A stretch of DNA of 53,331 bases from positions 1 to 53,331 of the IMG/VR virus record IMGVR_UViG_3300036828_001070; one strand, written 5' to 3'. The notes beneath the pieces are model-generated. The model was not told where the DNA came from and searched no databases. It worked only from the letters and a program-made list of their open reading frames with translations. This DNA is from a virus (taxonomy: Duplodnaviria; Caudoviricetes). The position numbers and the translations under genes were made by a program. The number at the start of each line of letters is the position of its first letter. The stretch's first letter is position 1. Shown in pieces: positions 3,001-33,823 of this stretch.

Positions 3001-3036
3001 ATTCGGACTGCGTTGATACTGCTGTTCCGTACTCAT
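1..3036 (-). CDS. large tail tubular/nozzle (DNA-stabilisation)-like protein, N-terminal 1012 codons, running off the window start; contains a PA14-like insert
   Basis: Missing from the ORF track because it has no stop. Hand translation from ATG 3036 (MSTEQQYQRSPNGQRFQMGGMNLVLPPDALPDGK...AQNVR) is open to base 1. Beta-rich, and lies after adaptor/fibre genes as in P22/T7-like podoviruses. Confidence 0.75.
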   Translation of the reverse strand, partial: MSTEQQYQRSPNGQRFQMGGMNLVLPPDALPDGKCVYAQNVRAYLQARTTERTTQGDAVEYLGATVHSLRRLNDTTPAGPASGYALIGGADGSLYCNAVAVASGLSGNPLAMVPFRPNTSPQPWMYVGDSSQAVEIAASSFACAGMLKVRSDGLTYKMGIKEPQNSPKVATETTTVTGTVIVLGSARPWSNVDGQNTSFNYNDNGNGTGSVVIATPIAGATLTLSASGSATINGVTHGPDDEGPTGASNPGQFVPGGCDILCGAWTDGSGNVLTGITGAVVSVGNSISLSVPIGAAAFQLGINGIGGNFAGNTGQFIVNYSRTTSAVTTVPSMLGNITAYYWGDSPHSGSVATYIWKNAGDTAGSGPVRDIGDAAGLTTNNSLIFDQTPATQATPMEWTILDATGASIGSKEVFLTALETEGFQDFNMCVVGNLYIPHAGNYTFSVTSKDNVMWGIGGNASWPGIHTITGAAAQTETVVSRCPLLPSPPIDGAGAATSISVTVSFPGAGIYPLELDYVYWYHPGRTLVVTSNGAVIPPIAGTVREAVTYRYVYRSSATGATSNPSPASPSQTVPSISNTITPVWSNDPQVDKIDYYRMDAALDNFTYVGTGPNTNPPTDFTDQLLDTAVTGNPLLQFDNYEPFPSIDLPKGGVVNVVGGVVEWVSGDQFNTRWLPGTIINIGGIAYALYNRPSSPTALVAVNTADGTNLAYEIAEPILAAQPLVSMWGDSDNTIFSFACGDPLRPGTLYWCKGNNLDSAPDTNQQDVTSPSEALINGTMVNGIGMVFSAENGWTIYPNFTSALATVTGVQGSAFSLIRSGVTRGLYIRPCITHDGSGTFFYRSRDGIEMSAGGARQQSLTDADLYNLFPHEGFVPQPVSRAGYTVYPPDDTQPEKQKLSFATGYLYYDYVDTIGTPRTLVLDVAGGGWVVDVYEDPVTIHALEEGPNANDVLLGCANGSVRRLLNGGAEVTSCVLLTAVQNSGDARANKKLGDLFIRARVTVNAIAIQPWTN

Positions 3037-3053
3037 GTAGGCTACCGTCTACA
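3036..3053. promoter_or_regulatory. operator-like palindrome TGTAG-gctaccgt-CTACA
   Basis: Member of the genome-wide TGTAG-N8-CTACA family; overlaps the start codon of the large tail gene. Confidence 0.65.
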
Positions 3054-13688: not shown

Positions 13689-13722
13689 AATGAATCACAA
13701 CGGTTGTAGGCTGTCAACTACA
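13689..13722 (-). promoter_or_regulatory. putative late promoter (TTGACA-17-TTCATT) overlapped by operator TGTAG-gctgtcaa-CTACA (13705-13722)
   Basis: Perfect -35 lies inside the palindrome; -10 is weak. Confidence 0.6.
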
Positions 13723-21701: not shown

Positions 21702-21925
21702 CCCAGATCGGTATCAAACACGTCGTCAATCACCAGTTTCCTGGTTTTGTCCAGGTGCACCGCAGCAAACAATTTTGCTTTCCCGTACTGTTCCAAGCCG
21801 AAGACCGCGAAAAGATTCTCCATCAGCCCATCCATAACAAACTGGGTTTCAAAGCTGCGGTCCTGGCTATACATCAGGCCCGGACCATCGGGACGATTCA
21901 GCGGGCGCTGCATCTTGACGATCAC
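21695..21925 (-). CDS. hypothetical protein
   Basis: Coupled ORF, IVKMQRPL. Confidence 0.6.
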   Translation of the reverse strand: MIVKMQRPLNRPDGPGLMYSQDRSFETQFVMDGLMENLFAVFGLEQYGKAKLFAAVHLDKTRKLVIDDVFDTDLGW

Positions 21926-26086: not shown

Positions 26087-26410
26087 TCAGCCTTCTTCCT
26101 TCAACTTAATGACGCTGACTTTGTCTACCCCATCCACAGATGGATCGAACCTGCGATTGCGTTCCAGCCAACCCAAGAACTTACTACCGCCCTCGCGCGC
26201 CTTCTCGTACAACTCCTTCTGGTTTTCTTCGTAGGCGATCAATACCGAGAAATCAAACGGGAATAAGGGCGGTGTAAGGATGCCTCCTTCAGGGATCGAT
26301 TCGAGTGTGATAGGGTCCGCCTGTTGCATACGCTCAAAATTTTCCTTCTCGATCACTACCAGAAGAACCGACTTCTTCTCTTCGCTGATATTCACCATCG
26401 CTGCTAACAT
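26087..26410 (-). CDS. hypothetical protein
   Basis: GGGAG RBS before MLAAMVN; first gene of the minus-strand run. Confidence 0.6.
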   Translation of the reverse strand: MLAAMVNISEEKKSVLLVVIEKENFERMQQADPITLESIPEGGILTPPLFPFDFSVLIAYEENQKELYEKAREGGSKFLGWLERNRRFDPSVDGVDKVSVIKLKEEG

Positions 26411-26489
26411 TTGGCGTTCTCCCTGTCGCTTGCAGCCCACATCGCCTGTCGCCTACACTCTACCACTTGCGCTTATCCCTTGCGCCTAA

Positions 26490-27150
26490 AATCTCCCCAC
26501 TTTCTACTGTCGCCCCCAGCCTACCTTATCCTCCAATACTTACTACTCTTACTAACTTAATTACCTTTGTTTCCCTATTCCCAACTTTATTTTTACCTCT
26601 ACCCCAATTGTGAAACTTTTTACCCACCTCGTCCCGTCCTTACCTCTTTCAGCCTTTTCCTCGCGCTCGCCTTACCTCGCTTTCCAGCAAAACCCTTTCC
26701 CCCTATTTTTTTCTTCTCTATTCCACTTTTCGTTTTCATTCGAAAAAGGTAGGATGCGTCAGTGACATCGCGCCCCCGCCTGGAGCGGACAAATAAAGCG
26801 CGAAATTCAGGCCATCCGGGCCATCATAGAACCTCCACAGCGCATCTGTGACGGCACGTAGATGCCGGCAGAGTCCCTATCTTTAGATAGAGTGTCGTAG
26901 GATGCTGCAGCCCGGCAGAATCCCGTCCTACAACTAGTCAATTAGCGTTTGCGGCCGAATCCCTGACAATACCGCCGGCAGCCTGCAGCCTGATCGTGTT
27001 TAGTCAGATGCGCCTTGATAAGCGCCTAAGAACATCTGGAATTGGTTCTTAGAGCATCCCCTGCGCGCATTATGCCGGCAGGAAACCTGCGCGCGAAACA
27101 GGGTAAGTGGAAGACACAGAGGTGACAAAGAAAATATTTACGATAAGAGT
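26490..27150. other. long non-coding divergence region: pyrimidine-rich tract followed by a hairpin-rich segment
   Basis: 26490-26745 is strongly C/T-skewed; 26840-27105 has several inverted repeats and CCGGCAG repeats; no credible ORF. Confidence 0.6.
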
Positions 27151-27152
27151 AA

Positions 27153-27218
27153 AATAGGCTATTGACGACACATTAGAAGCATGTAATTCTATAGATCCGT
27201 TGTAGGCGATTAGCTACA
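27153..27218 (+). promoter_or_regulatory. early promoter (TTGACG at 27162) with two operators (27153-27170 degenerate; 27201-27218 TGTAG-gcgattag-CTACA)
   Basis: AT-rich UP-like region, near-consensus -35, operator palindromes; -10 ambiguous. Confidence 0.6.
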
Positions 27219-27225
27219 GCGGTAA

Positions 27226-27279
27226 GACCGAAACCCGCGTTTTGTGGGTCGTAGTGTAAAGCACTACCTGACGAAGGTC
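27226..27279 (+). ncRNA. type II hammerhead ribozyme
   Basis: GACC-GAAA-CCCGC(GTTTT)GTGGG-TC^-GTAGTG(TAAAG)CACTAC-CTGACGA-A-GGTC: full catalytic core and three stems; predicted cut after 27250. Confidence 0.88.
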
Positions 27280-27284
27280 AGATA

Positions 27285-27307
27285 AAGCGCATACCACGCT
27301 TAGGAGA
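27285..27307 (+). promoter_or_regulatory. UACCA-loop hairpin plus SD, copy 1
   Basis: AAGCG-CATACCA-CGCTT-AGGAGA. Confidence 0.7.
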
Positions 27308-27315
27308 GAAACGAA

Positions 27316-28194
27316 ATGAATTTACACCACTTTACCCATGGTGCACGTGCTAACCGGCAGCTGGAACCGATGACCATTGCGGAGCTGCAGTTAGCGGTTC
27401 CATCGGCATTTGCGACTACGGCGCATTCTTCGCGGTCTGAGCGTTACGCCTATATTCCTACGGCCAATGTGATTCAGGCGATGATGAAGGAAGGTTTCCA
27501 GCCTTTTAAGGCGACGCAGTCCGGATCCCGGATTGAAGGCAAGGCGGAATTTACCAAGCACTTGATACGCTTTCGCCATATTTCTGCCGGCAGTGATATT
27601 TGTGTAGGGGATAGCGTGCCTGAAGTTGTTTTGATTAACTCCCATGATGGCACCTCAGCTTACAAGCTGATTGCTGGGATGTATCGTTTGATTTGTTCGA
27701 ATGGGTTAATGGTGGCGGAGTCTACCACCGGATCTCTGAGCGTGCATCATACTGGCGACATTGTTAACCGGGTTATTGAAGGTTCGTTTGAAATTGTTGG
27801 CCAGGCATCGAAGGCGCTAGAGACTTCGAAGGTCTGGTCACATCTGGAATTGTCTGCAGGGGAGCGAGAAGTATTTGCTGAAGCTGCGCACACAGTACGG
27901 TTTGCTGAATCGGATGGCAAGGTAGACACGCCCATCACCGCAGCAATGCTTTTGACTCCGCGGCGCCGTGATGATGCTGGCAACAACCTTTGGCAAACGT
28001 TTAACCGGGTGCAGGAGAACGCGGTTAAAGGTGGATTGGCTGCGCGTGCCGAACGTAAACCTGGCCAGCGTATGGGACGTTTGGTTAGGACTCGCGAAGT
28101 TAAGGGTATCGACCAGGATGTAAAGCTTAACCGCGCGCTATGGCAGTTGGCAGAGCGGATGGCGGAGCTGAAGGGAGTTAAAACCGCAGCCTAG
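27316..28194 (+). CDS. DUF932 (DUF945/YubP-like) protein
   Basis: SRSERYAYIPT, FTKHLIRFR, PEVVLINSHDGTSAY, RLICSNGL, LWQTFNRVQEN motifs. Confidence 0.9.
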   Translation: MNLHHFTHGARANRQLEPMTIAELQLAVPSAFATTAHSSRSERYAYIPTANVIQAMMKEGFQPFKATQSGSRIEGKAEFTKHLIRFRHISAGSDICVGDSVPEVVLINSHDGTSAYKLIAGMYRLICSNGLMVAESTTGSLSVHHTGDIVNRVIEGSFEIVGQASKALETSKVWSHLELSAGEREVFAEAAHTVRFAESDGKVDTPITAAMLLTPRRRDDAGNNLWQTFNRVQENAVKGGLAARAERKPGQRMGRLVRTREVKGIDQDVKLNRALWQLAERMAELKGVKTAA

Positions 28195-28256
28195 CAGATG
28201 GCGAGGTGGGAGAGATCCCACCTTGTAATGCGCCGGCGGTCAGTCCAAAGTCTGAC
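28194..28256 (+). ncRNA. twister-like ribozyme (P5-type permutation, variant)
   Basis: GCA-GA-TGG-[P1 CGAGGTGGGA/TCCCACCTTG]-T^AA-TGC-GC..-[P4 GTCAG-TCCAAAGT-CTGAC]; T1 pseudoknot TGG/CCA in register; T2 non-canonical. Confidence 0.6.
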
Positions 28257-28268
28257 GCATTAAACCAA

Positions 28269-28289
28269 GTGCCTTACCAGCACAGGAGA
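28269..28289 (+). promoter_or_regulatory. UACCA-loop hairpin plus SD, copy 2
   Basis: GTGC-CTTACCA-GCAC-AGGAGA. Confidence 0.7.
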
Positions 28290-28296
28290 AAACCGA

Positions 28297-29052
28297 ATGA
28301 AGCATCTTATTTCGCTATCTGCAGCCATTAAGGCGAAGGCGCCGATCGTGGCGCTACCCATAGAAGGACACGCACCTGTATGCGTAGCGCGCGCGCGCCT
28401 GGCTAAGTGGTCTAAAGGCGTGACCATTACCAGCGTCAAGGTTACCGGTGGCGAAGCCTATATCACGATCGAATTCGAACGGCCGAAAGGCTATCAGGTA
28501 GAAGGTCCGATTAACCGCGTCGAAGTCCATCACCTCACTCCTCGGCGCCTGGAGATCGAAGGCACTGCCGGCAGAGTTAAAACCCGCTGCTCTTTTATTC
28601 CCATTGATAGACGTACGGCGGTTAAGACGCTGGCCGCTTGGAGCGAAAAGGAACGCGCGCGCCTCACTAAAAAGACGCTGTTAGGTGCGTTGGGAACCAA
28701 GGAAAGACGCGCGCTAAAGCTGGCCAAGCATGAGACTGAAGGCGAAGGTATGATCTCCGCCACGATCGCCTATCCCAACGGCAAACGTGCCGACGTCATG
28801 GGGCTGCCGGTAACTATTCCCCAGCTGGCGGAGCTGACGTTTGTAGTGCATCGCGCGCTATCCGCCGAAGGCGATTACGTAGACGACCAATGGACAGTAT
28901 CGGAGATCGTTAGCGGCCAGGCTGGCGGCTTCGGTGCGACTGCAGAGGATGCGATCGTAGACGCGCGCCAGCGCTGCGCTAAAACTTCGGCCGAAAAACT
29001 GCAGTCCATACGCGATCTAGTGGCTTCGATGTCGGAAGCGATCGCAGCTTAA
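28297..29052 (+). CDS. hypothetical early protein
   Basis: AGGAGA RBS, 251 aa. Confidence 0.75.
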   Translation: MKHLISLSAAIKAKAPIVALPIEGHAPVCVARARLAKWSKGVTITSVKVTGGEAYITIEFERPKGYQVEGPINRVEVHHLTPRRLEIEGTAGRVKTRCSFIPIDRRTAVKTLAAWSEKERARLTKKTLLGALGTKERRALKLAKHETEGEGMISATIAYPNGKRADVMGLPVTIPQLAELTFVVHRALSAEGDYVDDQWTVSEIVSGQAGGFGATAEDAIVDARQRCAKTSAEKLQSIRDLVASMSEAIAA

Positions 29053-29101: not shown

Positions 29102-29461
29102 ATGAACAGTAAAGACATGGTTACCGACTTCAAGCTGCAGGAGAACGGAGAAAACTGCACTATTAAGGCGCTGCTCAAGGCGATTAACGCGTTCTGCGGA
29201 TCCCTGGCCGAAGAGTATGACTTTGGGCTGCCATTCGATACGCCTAAAGATGCGCGCCTGCCGGAGAAGTATTGGCGCCTGATTGCATTCGCCGTCGAAG
29301 GCTCCAATGAAGGCTATTACGTGCACCTGGGTGCACTGGTACGCGACCGCCACACTACCAACTATGTCTCATTCAGTCTGGCTAAAACCTATAGCGCGGA
29401 GAGTGCTTACGAACTCGCCAAACAAACATCACGCTTCCTGGCTGCAGCCTGCTGGAACTAA
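29102..29461 (+). CDS. hypothetical early protein
   Basis: Start MNSKD; EGSNEGYYVH motif. Confidence 0.7.
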   Translation: MNSKDMVTDFKLQENGENCTIKALLKAINAFCGSLAEEYDFGLPFDTPKDARLPEKYWRLIAFAVEGSNEGYYVHLGALVRDRHTTNYVSFSLAKTYSAESAYELAKQTSRFLAAACWN

Positions 29462-29503
29462 TCGCCGGCCCGGAGCGTTTCCGGTCAGAAAGGCTTTACC
29501 CCT

Positions 29504-29719
29504 ATGCAATGCGCCATGCGCGACGAATGCAGGCAGCCAGTAACCCACATCGGAGAGAAAGGATACGTCTACTGTGCCGAAGACGCTGAGCGTCGTCGGC
29601 AATCAGGCTATGAGAGAACGCGCAGAATGCGTGTCTGGGAATTGCAACTGATTGCCAACGGACAGCCTCTGCCCTCTTACACTCCCCAGAGAAAACCACA
29701 AGGAGAGAACAATGGCTAA
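29504..29719 (+). CDS. small Zn-binding hypothetical protein
   Basis: CAMRDEC..PVTHIGEKGYVYC. Confidence 0.65.
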   Translation: MQCAMRDECRQPVTHIGEKGYVYCAEDAERRRQSGYERTRRMRVWELQLIANGQPLPSYTPQRKPQGENNG

Positions 29720-30173: not shown

Positions 30174-30488
30174 ATGCGTTTCATGAAATTCACTTCCGCC
30201 GTTGTACTCTGCGCCGGCTCCATTGCCCTGCACGCGCAAACCACGACCACTTGCACTCCCACCTGGGGAGGCGGCCAAACCTGCACCACGCAAGAAAGCC
30301 CATTACAGAAGCTGCAAGAGCAGCAGCGCGAACAACAGGAGCAGTGGCACCGTCAACAGCAAGAGCAGCAGCAAGCCTTCCAGAACCAGAGGCAGCAGGA
30401 ACAGGCGAACCGCCCGCAGTGCACCACTTACTCGCGCGACCCGTTTAGCGGCCAGGTCAAGGCCCGCACCGCTCCCTGCGCCTTCTAA
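30174..30488 (+). CDS. secreted/periplasmic Gln-rich protein
   Basis: Signal peptide ending ALHA-Q, Cys pairs, Gln-rich coil. Confidence 0.65.
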   Translation: MRFMKFTSAVVLCAGSIALHAQTTTTCTPTWGGGQTCTTQESPLQKLQEQQREQQEQWHRQQQEQQQAFQNQRQQEQANRPQCTTYSRDPFSGQVKARTAPCAF

Positions 30489-30544
30489 ATCTGTGGGCGC
30501 GCTATTGATAGGCGCCCAAAACTTTTACCAAACCGAACCCCGAA

Positions 30545-30565
30545 ACGCTCTACCAGCGTAGGAGA
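30545..30565 (+). promoter_or_regulatory. UACCA-loop hairpin plus SD, copy 3
   Basis: ACGC-TCTACCA-GCGT-AGGAGA. Confidence 0.7.
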
Positions 30566-30573
30566 ACAAAGCC

Positions 30574-30888
30574 ATGGCTCAGCCTATCCGCACCAGGATT
30601 AATATCCCCGAACTCGACAAAGCCGACGGCCGCGCCGTTCTGATCTTCGAAACCTTCAAACCCCTGTCTGGCGGAATTACCTCGTATGCCCGCGTGGAAT
30701 TCGTTGGTGACAACTTCTCGACCTTCGCACCCTTTGGCGACTTCTCCACCCGTCTGGAACACAACCGCAACGCCCGCGCCACCCAAGCTGCCATGCAGGC
30801 CCAGCATGACCGCATCTTTGCCCCCGCCGTGGCCGATGCCCTGCGCGGCCGCGCCCTGTTCCACTACCAAGGCCCGCAGACGCTCTGA
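30574..30888 (+). CDS. hypothetical early protein
   Basis: AGGAGA RBS, 104 aa. Confidence 0.7.
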   Translation: MAQPIRTRINIPELDKADGRAVLIFETFKPLSGGITSYARVEFVGDNFSTFAPFGDFSTRLEHNRNARATQAAMQAQHDRIFAPAVADALRGRALFHYQGPQTL

Positions 30889-32817: not shown

Positions 32818-33100
32818 TCCAAAAAATCCGCCACCGCTGACTGCACAACAGCGCAAACGGCTTAACCGTCTCGCTACTATGCCCGACAGCGAAATCGACT
32901 ACAGCGACATTCCACCTCTTACAGGCAAGGAGGTCTGGACCCGCCCCGGCCTTCTGGTTTCGACGGAAAACAAACAGATGGTAACCCTGCGTCTCGATGC
33001 CGATGTCCTACAGTTCTTCAAGAAGACCGGCAAACGTTACCAAAGCCGCATCAATGCAGCTCTGCGCGAGTACATCCAGATCCACAAAAAATCTGCCTAA
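32801..33100 (+). CDS. brnA: BrnA-family antitoxin
   Basis: GTG start at 32801; IDYSDIPPL...KQMVTLRLDADVLQFFK..G.RYQSRINAALR. Confidence 0.9.
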   Translation: MKYEFDPKNPPPLTAQQRKRLNRLATMPDSEIDYSDIPPLTGKEVWTRPGLLVSTENKQMVTLRLDADVLQFFKKTGKRYQSRINAALREYIQIHKKSA

Positions 33101-33117
33101 CCCCTAAACCGCACTAA

Positions 33118-33140
33118 GTCGGCATACCACCGACAGGAGA
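33118..33140 (+). promoter_or_regulatory. UACCA-loop hairpin plus SD, copy 4
   Basis: GTCGG-CATACCA-CCGAC-AGGAGA. Confidence 0.7.
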
Positions 33141-33148
33141 ATCGTTCG

Positions 33149-33823
33149 ATGCAGAATGCAGTCGCTTACTTAAGAGTCTCCGGACAATCCCAGCTGGAAG
33201 GCACCGGCTTTGATCGCCAACTGGAAGCCTGCACCAGCTTCGCCGCCGGCAAAGACTTCGCCCTGGTCAAAATCTTCGAAGAGAAGGCCATCGCCGGCTG
33301 GAAGGATGAGGATGAGCGTCCCGCCTTCCAAGAGATGATCGCCTACATGCTGGACAACAACACCAGCATCATCCTGGTAGAAGGTCTGGACCGCCTGGCT
33401 CGCGCCATGCGCGTGCAGGAACAGCTGCTGCTCTACCTCGCCGCCAAGGATCTCACCCTCTACGCCGCTAACACTGGCGAGAACATCACCGAAGCGGTTA
33501 CCTCGGATCCCATGAAAAAGGCTTTGGTCCAGATTCAGGGAGTATTCGCGGAACTGGACAAAAGCATGATCGTGGCCAAACTGCGCAAGGGACGCGAACG
33601 CACCAAAGCCCGACACGGCCGCTGCGAAGGCCAGAAGCCCTATGGCCACTACCCCGGCGAAGCCCCGGTACTGGCGCGTATCCGCCACCTGCGCGCCCAG
33701 GGAATGCAATACCACCACATCGCCGAACGCCTTTCTGTCGAAGGCCACCGTTCGCGCTCCGGCGGTCCCTGGCGCGGTCCCGTCATCGCCAAGATCATAC
33801 GCCGGGAAGCGATAGCACCCTGA
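33149..33823 (+). CDS. small serine recombinase (resolvase family)
   Basis: YLRVSG..Q, ERPAFQEMI, VEGLDRLAR, C-terminal HTH-like region. Confidence 0.9.
   Translation: MQNAVAYLRVSGQSQLEGTGFDRQLEACTSFAAGKDFALVKIFEEKAIAGWKDEDERPAFQEMIAYMLDNNTSIILVEGLDRLARAMRVQEQLLLYLAAKDLTLYAANTGENITEAVTSDPMKKALVQIQGVFAELDKSMIVAKLRKGRERTKARHGRCEGQKPYGHYPGEAPVLARIRHLRAQGMQYHHIAERLSVEGHRSRSGGPWRGPVIAKIIRREAIAP

Follow-up and report, generated by a model that had tools for sequence, protein, structure and literature searches.

Type II hammerhead ribozymes are described as common in bacteria; in prophages they occur close to integrases, single genes are often flanked by them, and processing of long phage transcripts may yield single-gene mRNAs (PMC3088659). 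Prophage hammerheads flanking single genes such as ardA are active in vitro and in E. coli, according to the same source. Twister ribozymes and hammerheads commonly occur no more than a few kilobases apart, and the roles of both in bacteria are called ‘largely speculative’ (PMC5408937); their precise functions are said to ‘remain unclear’ (PMC3088659). Here we analyse a phage record, IMGVR_UViG_3300036828_001070, over its full length of 53,331 bases (hereafter, the window). On the plus strand at 27226–27279 the sequence confirms a complete type II hammerhead ribozyme in the leader of a gene of the DUF932 family. A twister-type ribozyme overlaps the stop codon of the same gene, which is bracketed by two predicted self-cleaving RNAs of different classes:

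27226–27279, plus strand: type II hammerhead ribozyme (core, descriptor, shuffles, fold and covariance model)
27316–28194, plus strand: DUF932 gene, 292 amino acids (PF06067, E 7.6e-44; phrog_12094, E 4.7e-95, unknown function)
28193–28255, plus strand: Twister-P5 ribozyme (RF02684) overlapping the DUF932 stop codon, predicted cut at about 28226/28227

The closest counterparts are the prophage type II hammerheads of Perreault 2011 (PMC3088659; RF02276), as far as that report describes them. The window copy shares with them the core, the permutation open at stem II and a prophage location near an integrase, flanking a single gene. It differs from them in its 4-bp stem II, an extra A, the lack of an evident pseudoknot and a score below the Rfam gathering threshold; furthermore, it is apparently promoter-proximal rather than intercistronic, and its partner is a twister, not another hammerhead. 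One extra A at the same place, between A9 and G10.1, occurs in the (+) hammerhead of chrysanthemum chlorotic mottle viroid (CChMVd), where it is compatible with self-cleavage at a moderately decreased rate (PMC1636495, PMC3705267); that RNA, however, is a viroid, its hammerhead has another permutation, and the extra A is described as kept for the global fold of the viroid.

In its layout, the locus resembles RiboJ, which consists of the hammerhead of sTRSV (the tobacco ringspot virus satellite RNA) and a 23-nt hairpin before the ribosome binding site (PMC6206723). The order of parts appears to be the same as in the window, i.e., promoter, transcribed operator or leader, hammerhead, hairpin and ribosome binding site. 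Cleavage of RiboJ removes the leader and leaves an mRNA with a hairpin-bearing 5'-OH end; in E. coli, mRNA is reported to rise about 2-fold and protein 2- to 10-fold (PMC6206723). RiboJ is engineered, whereas the window element is natural and of type II topology, and the likeness is a functional analogy, not family membership. The co-occurrence of twisters and hammerheads (Roth et al. 2014, as cited in PMC5408937) is mirrored by the window pair, which likewise lies within 1 kb and beside a protein-coding gene.

A ribozyme-flanked single phage gene is already known in prophages (Perreault 2011). Our findings go modestly beyond this in the apparently promoter-proximal, RiboJ-like layout, the hammerhead/twister pair around one gene, and DUF932 boundaries that carry four alternating ribozyme architectures. 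A full-text literature search, whose scope was the main texts and did not extend to supplements and the original twister papers, found no link of DUF932 with a ribozyme. We consider it likely, judging from the sequence, that the element is a genuine type II hammerhead in the transcript of a temperate-phage DUF932 gene, that it cuts itself, and that together with the twister it releases a single-gene mRNA.

Architecture of the hammerhead

The original prediction described a CUGACGA / GAAA / GUC core with stems I to III, open at stem II, and the plus strand at 27226–27279 is as described: GACC / GAAA / ACCCGC(G)-UUU(U)-(U)GUGGGU / C / GUAGUG(U)-AAA-(G)CACUAC / CUGACGA / A / GGUC. Its parts, all on the plus strand, are as follows:

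27226–27229: 3' strand of stem II, GACC
27230–27233: GAAA, i.e., G12-A13-A14 followed by A15.1
27233–27249: stem III hairpin, 6–7 bp, with the A15.1-U16.1 pair formed by A27233 and U27249
27250: C17, last base of the GUC triplet (G27248-U27249-C27250)
27250/27251: predicted scissile bond, 3' of C17, from hammerhead numbering on the sequence; the products would be C27250 with a 2',3'-cyclic phosphate and G27251 with a 5'-OH
27251–27267: stem I hairpin, 6–7 bp, beginning at G27251
27268–27274: core strand CUGACGA (C3 to A9)
27275: extra A, between A9 and G10.1
27276–27279: 5' strand of stem II, GGUC, forming 4 bp with GACC

The hallmarks of the hammerhead class are readily recognised. CUGACGA at 27268–27274 agrees with the core strand C3-U4-G5-A6-N7-G8-A9, and GAAA at 27230–27233 supplies G12-A13-A14 together with the A15.1-U16.1 pair (A27233 with U27249). 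The N-U-H triplet G27248-U27249-C27250 leaves H17 unpaired between stems III and I. Three helices are present with no mispair adjacent to the core (a criterion given in the methods of PMC3088659), and all stems are perfect. The G10.1-C11.1 pair exists (G27276-C27229) and is set off from A9 by the inserted A27275, the one extra A that had already been noticed after CUGACGA. The same bond, 27250/27251, results from the numbering as had been proposed for the cut. The location in a leader holds as well: the element is on the coding strand, 37 nt 5' of the ATG of the plus-strand gene that comes first after a divergent gap of 875 nt.

Chance expectation, fold and covariance model

A loose descriptor of the type II fold, which required only the two core strands, a U-H step and minimum stem lengths of 3, 2 and 3 bp, matched once when both strands of the 53,331-base window were searched, at 27226–27279. 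Matches with such short stems were obtained in 12 of 150 dinucleotide-preserving shuffles of the window, but stems as long as those observed (at least 6, 4 and 6 bp) in none of the 150. Folded alone, the 54-nt hammerhead has the three-way junction as its minimum free energy (MFE) structure, at −19.0 kcal/mol.

A covariance model, R1, was built from five type II hammerheads beside DUF932 genes in other contigs (L014, L018, L029, L072 and L082; loci are numbered with the prefix L), with the window left out. The whole window was searched on both strands with filters off; the calibration was short, and E-values are therefore rough. The site at 27226–27279 scored 31.8 bits (E about 4.3e-8) and was the sole significant match in the window, the runner-up lying 20 bits lower, at 11.5 bits (E 0.3).

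A second hammerhead, suggested by a 15.2-bit RF02276 match on the minus strand at 21861–21920, was rejected as chance because no CUGANGA core was visible by eye, the descriptor did not match there, and the RF02276 search also gives matches in 11 of 14 control genomes.

Ribozymes at the boundaries of related DUF932 genes

Protein-guided searches yielded 86 loci in 63 distinct DUF932 groups, with 139,687 bases in total. The strict descriptor found eight canonical hammerheads in the 63 loci against 0.82 expected from 60 shuffles (maximum 4), and all eight are on the strand of the gene and at a gene boundary. R1 matches with E up to 1 were likewise all (14/14) on the gene's strand.

Counts at the 3' side cover the 59 groups in which the sequence extends 80 nt or more past the stop codon, and those at the 5' side the 50 groups with 150 nt or more of upstream sequence. 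For about 17 groups the screen consisted of descriptors and a twister regular expression, without Rfam, and the twister count is a lower bound. A ribozyme directly behind the DUF932 stop codon was found in at least 12 of the 59 groups, in four architectures, and in 3 of the 50 groups one lies on the 5' side:

3' end, type II hammerhead: L014, L018, L072, L082
3' end, type I hammerhead: L030, L041, L073
3' end, type III hammerhead: L045, with one mismatch in stem I
3' end, Twister-P5: L005, L006, L015, L033
5' side, canonical type II hammerhead: L029
5' side, type I hammerhead with a 1-bp stem II (G-UAGGGGC-C): L042 (471–522), L046 (500–551)

Beyond the 12, L032 has a 3' hammerhead cut off by the end of the contig. 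In L042 and L046 a pseudoknot is possible between the loop II sequence GGGGC and a GCCUC that closely precedes stem I; the hammerhead of L042 overlaps the end of a 63-amino-acid upstream open reading frame (ORF). Type III-shaped folds were also seen in the 5' leaders of L008 (1399–1471), L009 (1388–1457) and L013 (1384–1457), with covarying stems I and II. Their cores are non-canonical (CUGAAAAA, CUGAAUGA and CUGAAUAA, respectively): CUGAAAAA and CUGAAUAA are without G8, and CUGAAUGA corresponds to an A6a insertion that is described as weakly active (PMC3088659). These folds are either weak variants or decayed ribozymes.

The extra A after A9 is also present in L041, and L073 has an extra C. 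A stem-free pattern scan of IMG/VR viral contigs returned at least 119 stretches, 80 of which were fetched (L093–L172); full type II hammerhead folds with an extra A after A9 were found in 28 of these 80. Two of the 28 share the GACC/GGUC stem II of the window, and only one (L096) has a DUF932 gene nearby. Since it recurs in CChMVd, in L041 and in the 28 IMG/VR loci, the extra A is a recurrent natural feature and not a sign of decay.

The twister and the proposed processing of the transcript

Twister-P5 (RF02684) matches at 28193–28255 over the complete model (1–58 of 58) with 44.5 bits, above the gathering score of 37.6 (E 4.4e-06). Its cut was placed from the Rfam alignment and the U-A dinucleotide, at which twisters cleave (PMC5408937). 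The Rfam scan of the window at E up to 5 returned no ribozyme besides the twister, and nothing ribozyme-like was seen by eye in the intergenic regions 29440–29680, 30420–30580 and 32840–33155. With the twister directly behind the gene, excision of a single-gene mRNA gives a fuller picture than the original prediction, which considered the leader only.

We propose the following course of events. Transcription would start near 27197, and stem III (27233–27249) and stem I (27251–27267) would form during synthesis of the RNA, after which the CUGACGA strand and GGUC would close stem II with GACC. The RNA would cut itself co-transcriptionally after C27250, and the upstream leader of 50-odd nt, with its operator-like palindrome, would be released and discarded, leaving a DUF932 mRNA whose first nucleotide, G27251, has a 5'-OH and is base-paired at the foot of the stem I hairpin. 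Twister-P5 would cut about 30 nt behind the DUF932 stop codon and leave a P1-type hairpin and a cyclic phosphate. The two ribozymes would thus release a single-gene mRNA of about 0.98 kb with hairpins at both ends, beginning in a 5'-OH and ending in a 2',3'-cyclic phosphate, uncoupled from both the leader and the downstream genes.

A type II hammerhead is inferred to leave each product with a hairpin (the upstream RNA with stem III at its 3' end, the downstream RNA with stem I at its 5' end), which would suit mRNA processing. It is plausible that a base-paired 5'-OH end escapes pyrophosphohydrolase- and 5'-monophosphate-dependent decay and stabilises the mRNA, an idea that fits the RiboJ data (PMC6206723) as well as established E. 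coli RNA-decay biochemistry. The benefit would be a defined 5' end resistant to exonucleases and RNase E, together with insulation from the leader, as with RiboJ.

Counter-evidence and alternative readings

A number of observations weigh against the reading that we prefer. The core is not free of insertions, and moderately slower cleavage is expected from the single extra A after A9, which does not exclude the element from the hammerheads. A pseudoknot between loop I and the 3' tail, reported for the majority of type II hammerheads and whose loss made a test construct 20- to more than 100-fold slower (PMC3088659), was not seen by eye (loop I UAAAG, tail AGAUAAAGCG); no pairing of at least 4 bp, as in most members of Hammerhead_II, was evident in the window copy. 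L014, L029, L072 and L082 are likewise without an obvious pseudoknot and have an A-rich tail in common, and L018 has one, in which UGGUCU pairs with AGACCA.

In the Rfam comparison that had been proposed as a check, Hammerhead_II (RF02276) aligns over its full length (model 1–66, 27226–27287) but with 22.7 bits, below the gathering score of 37, and with an E-value of 0.012 in a search of 201 bases. The site was unreported in whole-window Rfam scans at gathering and at E up to 5, and was absent from an RF02276 search of the whole record. The same model was applied to nine canonical-core hammerheads of relatives: L018 scored above the threshold (62.3 bits), L072 below it (33.3 bits), and the remaining seven were unreported at E up to 0.1 or 1. 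The sub-threshold score thus weighs little, as RF02276 misses or under-scores eight of nine canonical-core hammerheads next to homologous genes. Members with a pseudoknot and a 2-bp stem II have shaped the Rfam model; the local copies have a stem II of 4–5 bp and an A-rich tail.

Further reservations concern context and conservation. In the MFE fold of the leader (27198–27318, −40.0 kcal/mol), CUGAC pairs with GUCAG and stem II is unformed; a fold in which the hammerhead is enforced reaches −35.8 kcal/mol and is 4.2 kcal/mol less stable. These energies leave aside the tertiary energy of the core and the co-transcriptional order, in which GGUC emerges earlier than the competing AG. In an alignment of six hammerheads 94.9% of the cells are paired and 12 of 17 pairs are changed on both sides, but as evidence these counts are circular, since pairing was a requirement of the descriptor that selected the sequences; they document only a shared fold with different sequences. 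The exact 31-mer of the leader is absent from viral contigs, and the best DUF932 relative (67% protein identity) has no upstream hammerhead. No close relative of the leader was found, and the window copy itself is accordingly without evidence of conservation. The upstream hammerheads of L029 and L042 are imperfect parallels, for they abut or overlap the end of an upstream ORF and are intercistronic; the window copy, which has no preceding ORF, appears promoter-proximal, the less common placement.

Much of this could be read as the mark of a decayed or very slow hammerhead, the descendant of a ribozyme cassette whose two hairpins now are mere leader structure. The extra A, the missing pseudoknot, the Rfam score and the more stable competing hairpin all point this way, as do the non-canonical cores of L008, L009 and L013, which show that such elements drift at this locus, and the UAA before stem II, at which no open frame of at least 20 codons ends, a hint of a cassette moved from an intercistronic place. 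We nevertheless judge decay unlikely: the strictly conserved core nucleotides and the A15.1-U16.1 and G10.1-C11.1 pairs are intact, the three stems are perfect, the element alone folds as a hammerhead junction, and the extra A is a recurrent variant whose reported cost in CChMVd is only moderate (PMC1636495). The competing hairpins, CGGU/ACCG at 27220–27230 and CUGAC/GUCAG at 27268–27282, hold both strands of stem II in the MFE fold of the leader and, with the repeated palindrome 7 nt upstream, might also mean a conditional ribozyme, gated by these hairpins or by a protein on the palindrome RNA and serving regulated leader removal or expression. This is rather improbable, given that a CUG...CAG option across the core is found in L014 too and is implied by the Rfam type II consensus, possibly as a by-product of the motif; that no ligand-binding or sensor domain is present; and that neither the tertiary energy of the core nor the co-transcriptional order enters the thermodynamic model.

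The end chemistry of the excised fragment allows another outcome. RNA ends with a 5'-OH and a 2',3'-cyclic phosphate are substrates of RtcB, and a host ligase of this type could join the hammerhead-made 5' end to the twister-made 3' end into a circular DUF932 RNA. Circular or spliced products were raised as a possibility for clustered phage hammerheads (PMC3088659), but the same report mentions, as ‘data not shown’, that such products were undetected. In the newly made ends (5' GUAGUG... and 3' ...CCUUGU) no complementarity was seen that could hold them together, and many relatives have a ribozyme on one side only, which makes ligation very improbable. If true, it would provide the first rightward gene with a circular, exonuclease-proof and translatable mRNA, a natural counterpart of engineered ribozyme-assisted RNA circularisation. 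Mere chance resemblance, with neither ribozyme ancestry nor function, is close to refuted. Random sequence does match the loose descriptor (in 12 of 150 shuffles of the window, and at 0.82 sites per shuffle of the 63-locus set), and the Rfam E-value is only 0.012 in a small search; yet stems of the observed length never arose in the 150 shuffles, and the leave-one-out R1 model gave an E-value of about 4e-8 with the 20-bit gap to its runner-up. Moreover, the element lies on the coding strand in a leader, a bona fide twister follows 0.9 kb downstream, and relatives have hammerheads at the boundaries of the same gene. On balance, an active hammerhead that works with the twister in releasing the DUF932 mRNA is the reading we retain.

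The leader and its surroundings

Minus-strand genes end at 26440 and are followed by the 875-nt divergent gap and the plus-strand gene at 27316–28194. The following features were recognised around the two ribozymes:

27162–27190, plus strand: putative sigma-70-type promoter, recognised by eye (TTGACG at 27162–27167, a 17-nt spacer, and a weak −10 element, TG-n-AATTCT, at 27182–27190)
27201–27218, no strand assigned: palindrome TGTAGGC-N6-CTACA, from repeat count and fold; as RNA an 8-bp hairpin at 27198–27221
27285–27301, plus strand: hairpin AAGCG-CAUACCA-CGCUU from the fold, abutting the Shine-Dalgarno sequence AGGAGA (27302–27307)
28269–28283, plus strand: second hairpin with Shine-Dalgarno sequence, GUGC-CUUACCA-GCAC followed by AGGAGA, before the ORF at 28297–29052

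The automatic promoter scan called no plus-strand promoter at 27162–27190. In several relatives the equivalent promoter before DUF932 reads TTGACA-N17-TATTCT or TAATAT(TCT). The ‘operator’ that had been noted just upstream of the ribozyme proved to be the repeated palindrome at 27201–27218, which ends 7 nt before it. TGTAGGC-N6-CTACA has three copies in the window (3036–3053, 13705–13722 and 27201–27218) against 0.11 expected, and none of 100 shuffles had three. Each of the three copies closely precedes an ORF start, and their absolute orientation is the same. The palindrome is a real repeated site by these counts, and a candidate binding site of a regulator.

Hairpin–Shine-Dalgarno modules precede four plus-strand genes (27285–27301, 28269–28283, 30545–30559 and 33118–33134). 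Each has a stem of 4–5 bp and a 7-nt loop ending in UACCA and abuts AGGAGA, and the stems differ (AAGCG/CGCUU, GUGC/GCAC, ACGC/GCGU and GUCGG/CCGAC). The module also precedes DUF932 in 6 of 50 relatives and may be a translational operator or a 5' stabiliser. Behind the DUF932 gene the order is twister, module and next ORF (28297–29052).

In the window, UAA at 27223–27225 stands directly before stem II, and no plus-strand open frame of at least 20 codons ends at the ribozyme. The type II hammerheads of L014, L018, L029, L032, L072 and L082 begin at or right after UAG or UAA; this stop codon belongs to the upstream ORF in L029 and to DUF932 in the five 3'-flank copies. Either UA belongs to the ribozyme or a stop codon was carried along when the cassette moved.

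Two further features of the region were observed. The 8-bp palindrome TGCCGGCA has 14 sites in the window against 1.68 expected, a number that none of 100 shuffles reached; they include 26863, 27073, 27585 and 28566, and these four copies lie within 26863–28573, around the DUF932 gene. The plus strand of 26400–26700 is a pyrimidine-rich divergent intergenic stretch of about 300 nt (GC skew −0.43 to −0.80, AT skew about −0.3); on the minus strand it is purine-rich and just upstream of the ORF starting at 26440.

The phage record and the DUF932 family

The record is a linear IMG/VR virus contig with a CheckV completeness estimate of 65%. It encodes a major head protein, a large terminase, a primase/helicase, a tyrosine integrase and a serine recombinase, a set that indicates a temperate phage or a prophage. 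Among genomes, the DUF932 gene has its nearest relatives in metagenome-assembled genomes of Acidobacteriota, with 61% and 55% identity. DUF932 also matches at least 5000 plasmid records, 4421 of them typed conjugative, and in one plasmid locus (L092) an ssb gene lies just upstream of DUF932. On plasmids DUF932 may be a ‘leading-region’ gene, although none of the papers listed for this link contained both terms. Four sampled plasmid loci out of the at least 5000 records, too few for a generalisation, had neither a hammerhead nor a twister and showed hairpins after the stop codon.

Implications

Rfam hammerhead models miss most of the compact hammerheads described here, which have a 4-bp stem II and no pseudoknot, and such ribozymes are consequently under-annotated in phage data. 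The layout of the window appears to be that of RiboJ and provides a compact case for measuring the effect of a natural leader ribozyme on mRNA level and translation. At the boundaries of DUF932 genes in soil phage-like contigs, self-cleaving RNAs (hammerheads I, II and III and twister P5) are interchangeable, which argues that cleavage itself is selected, and not any one RNA.

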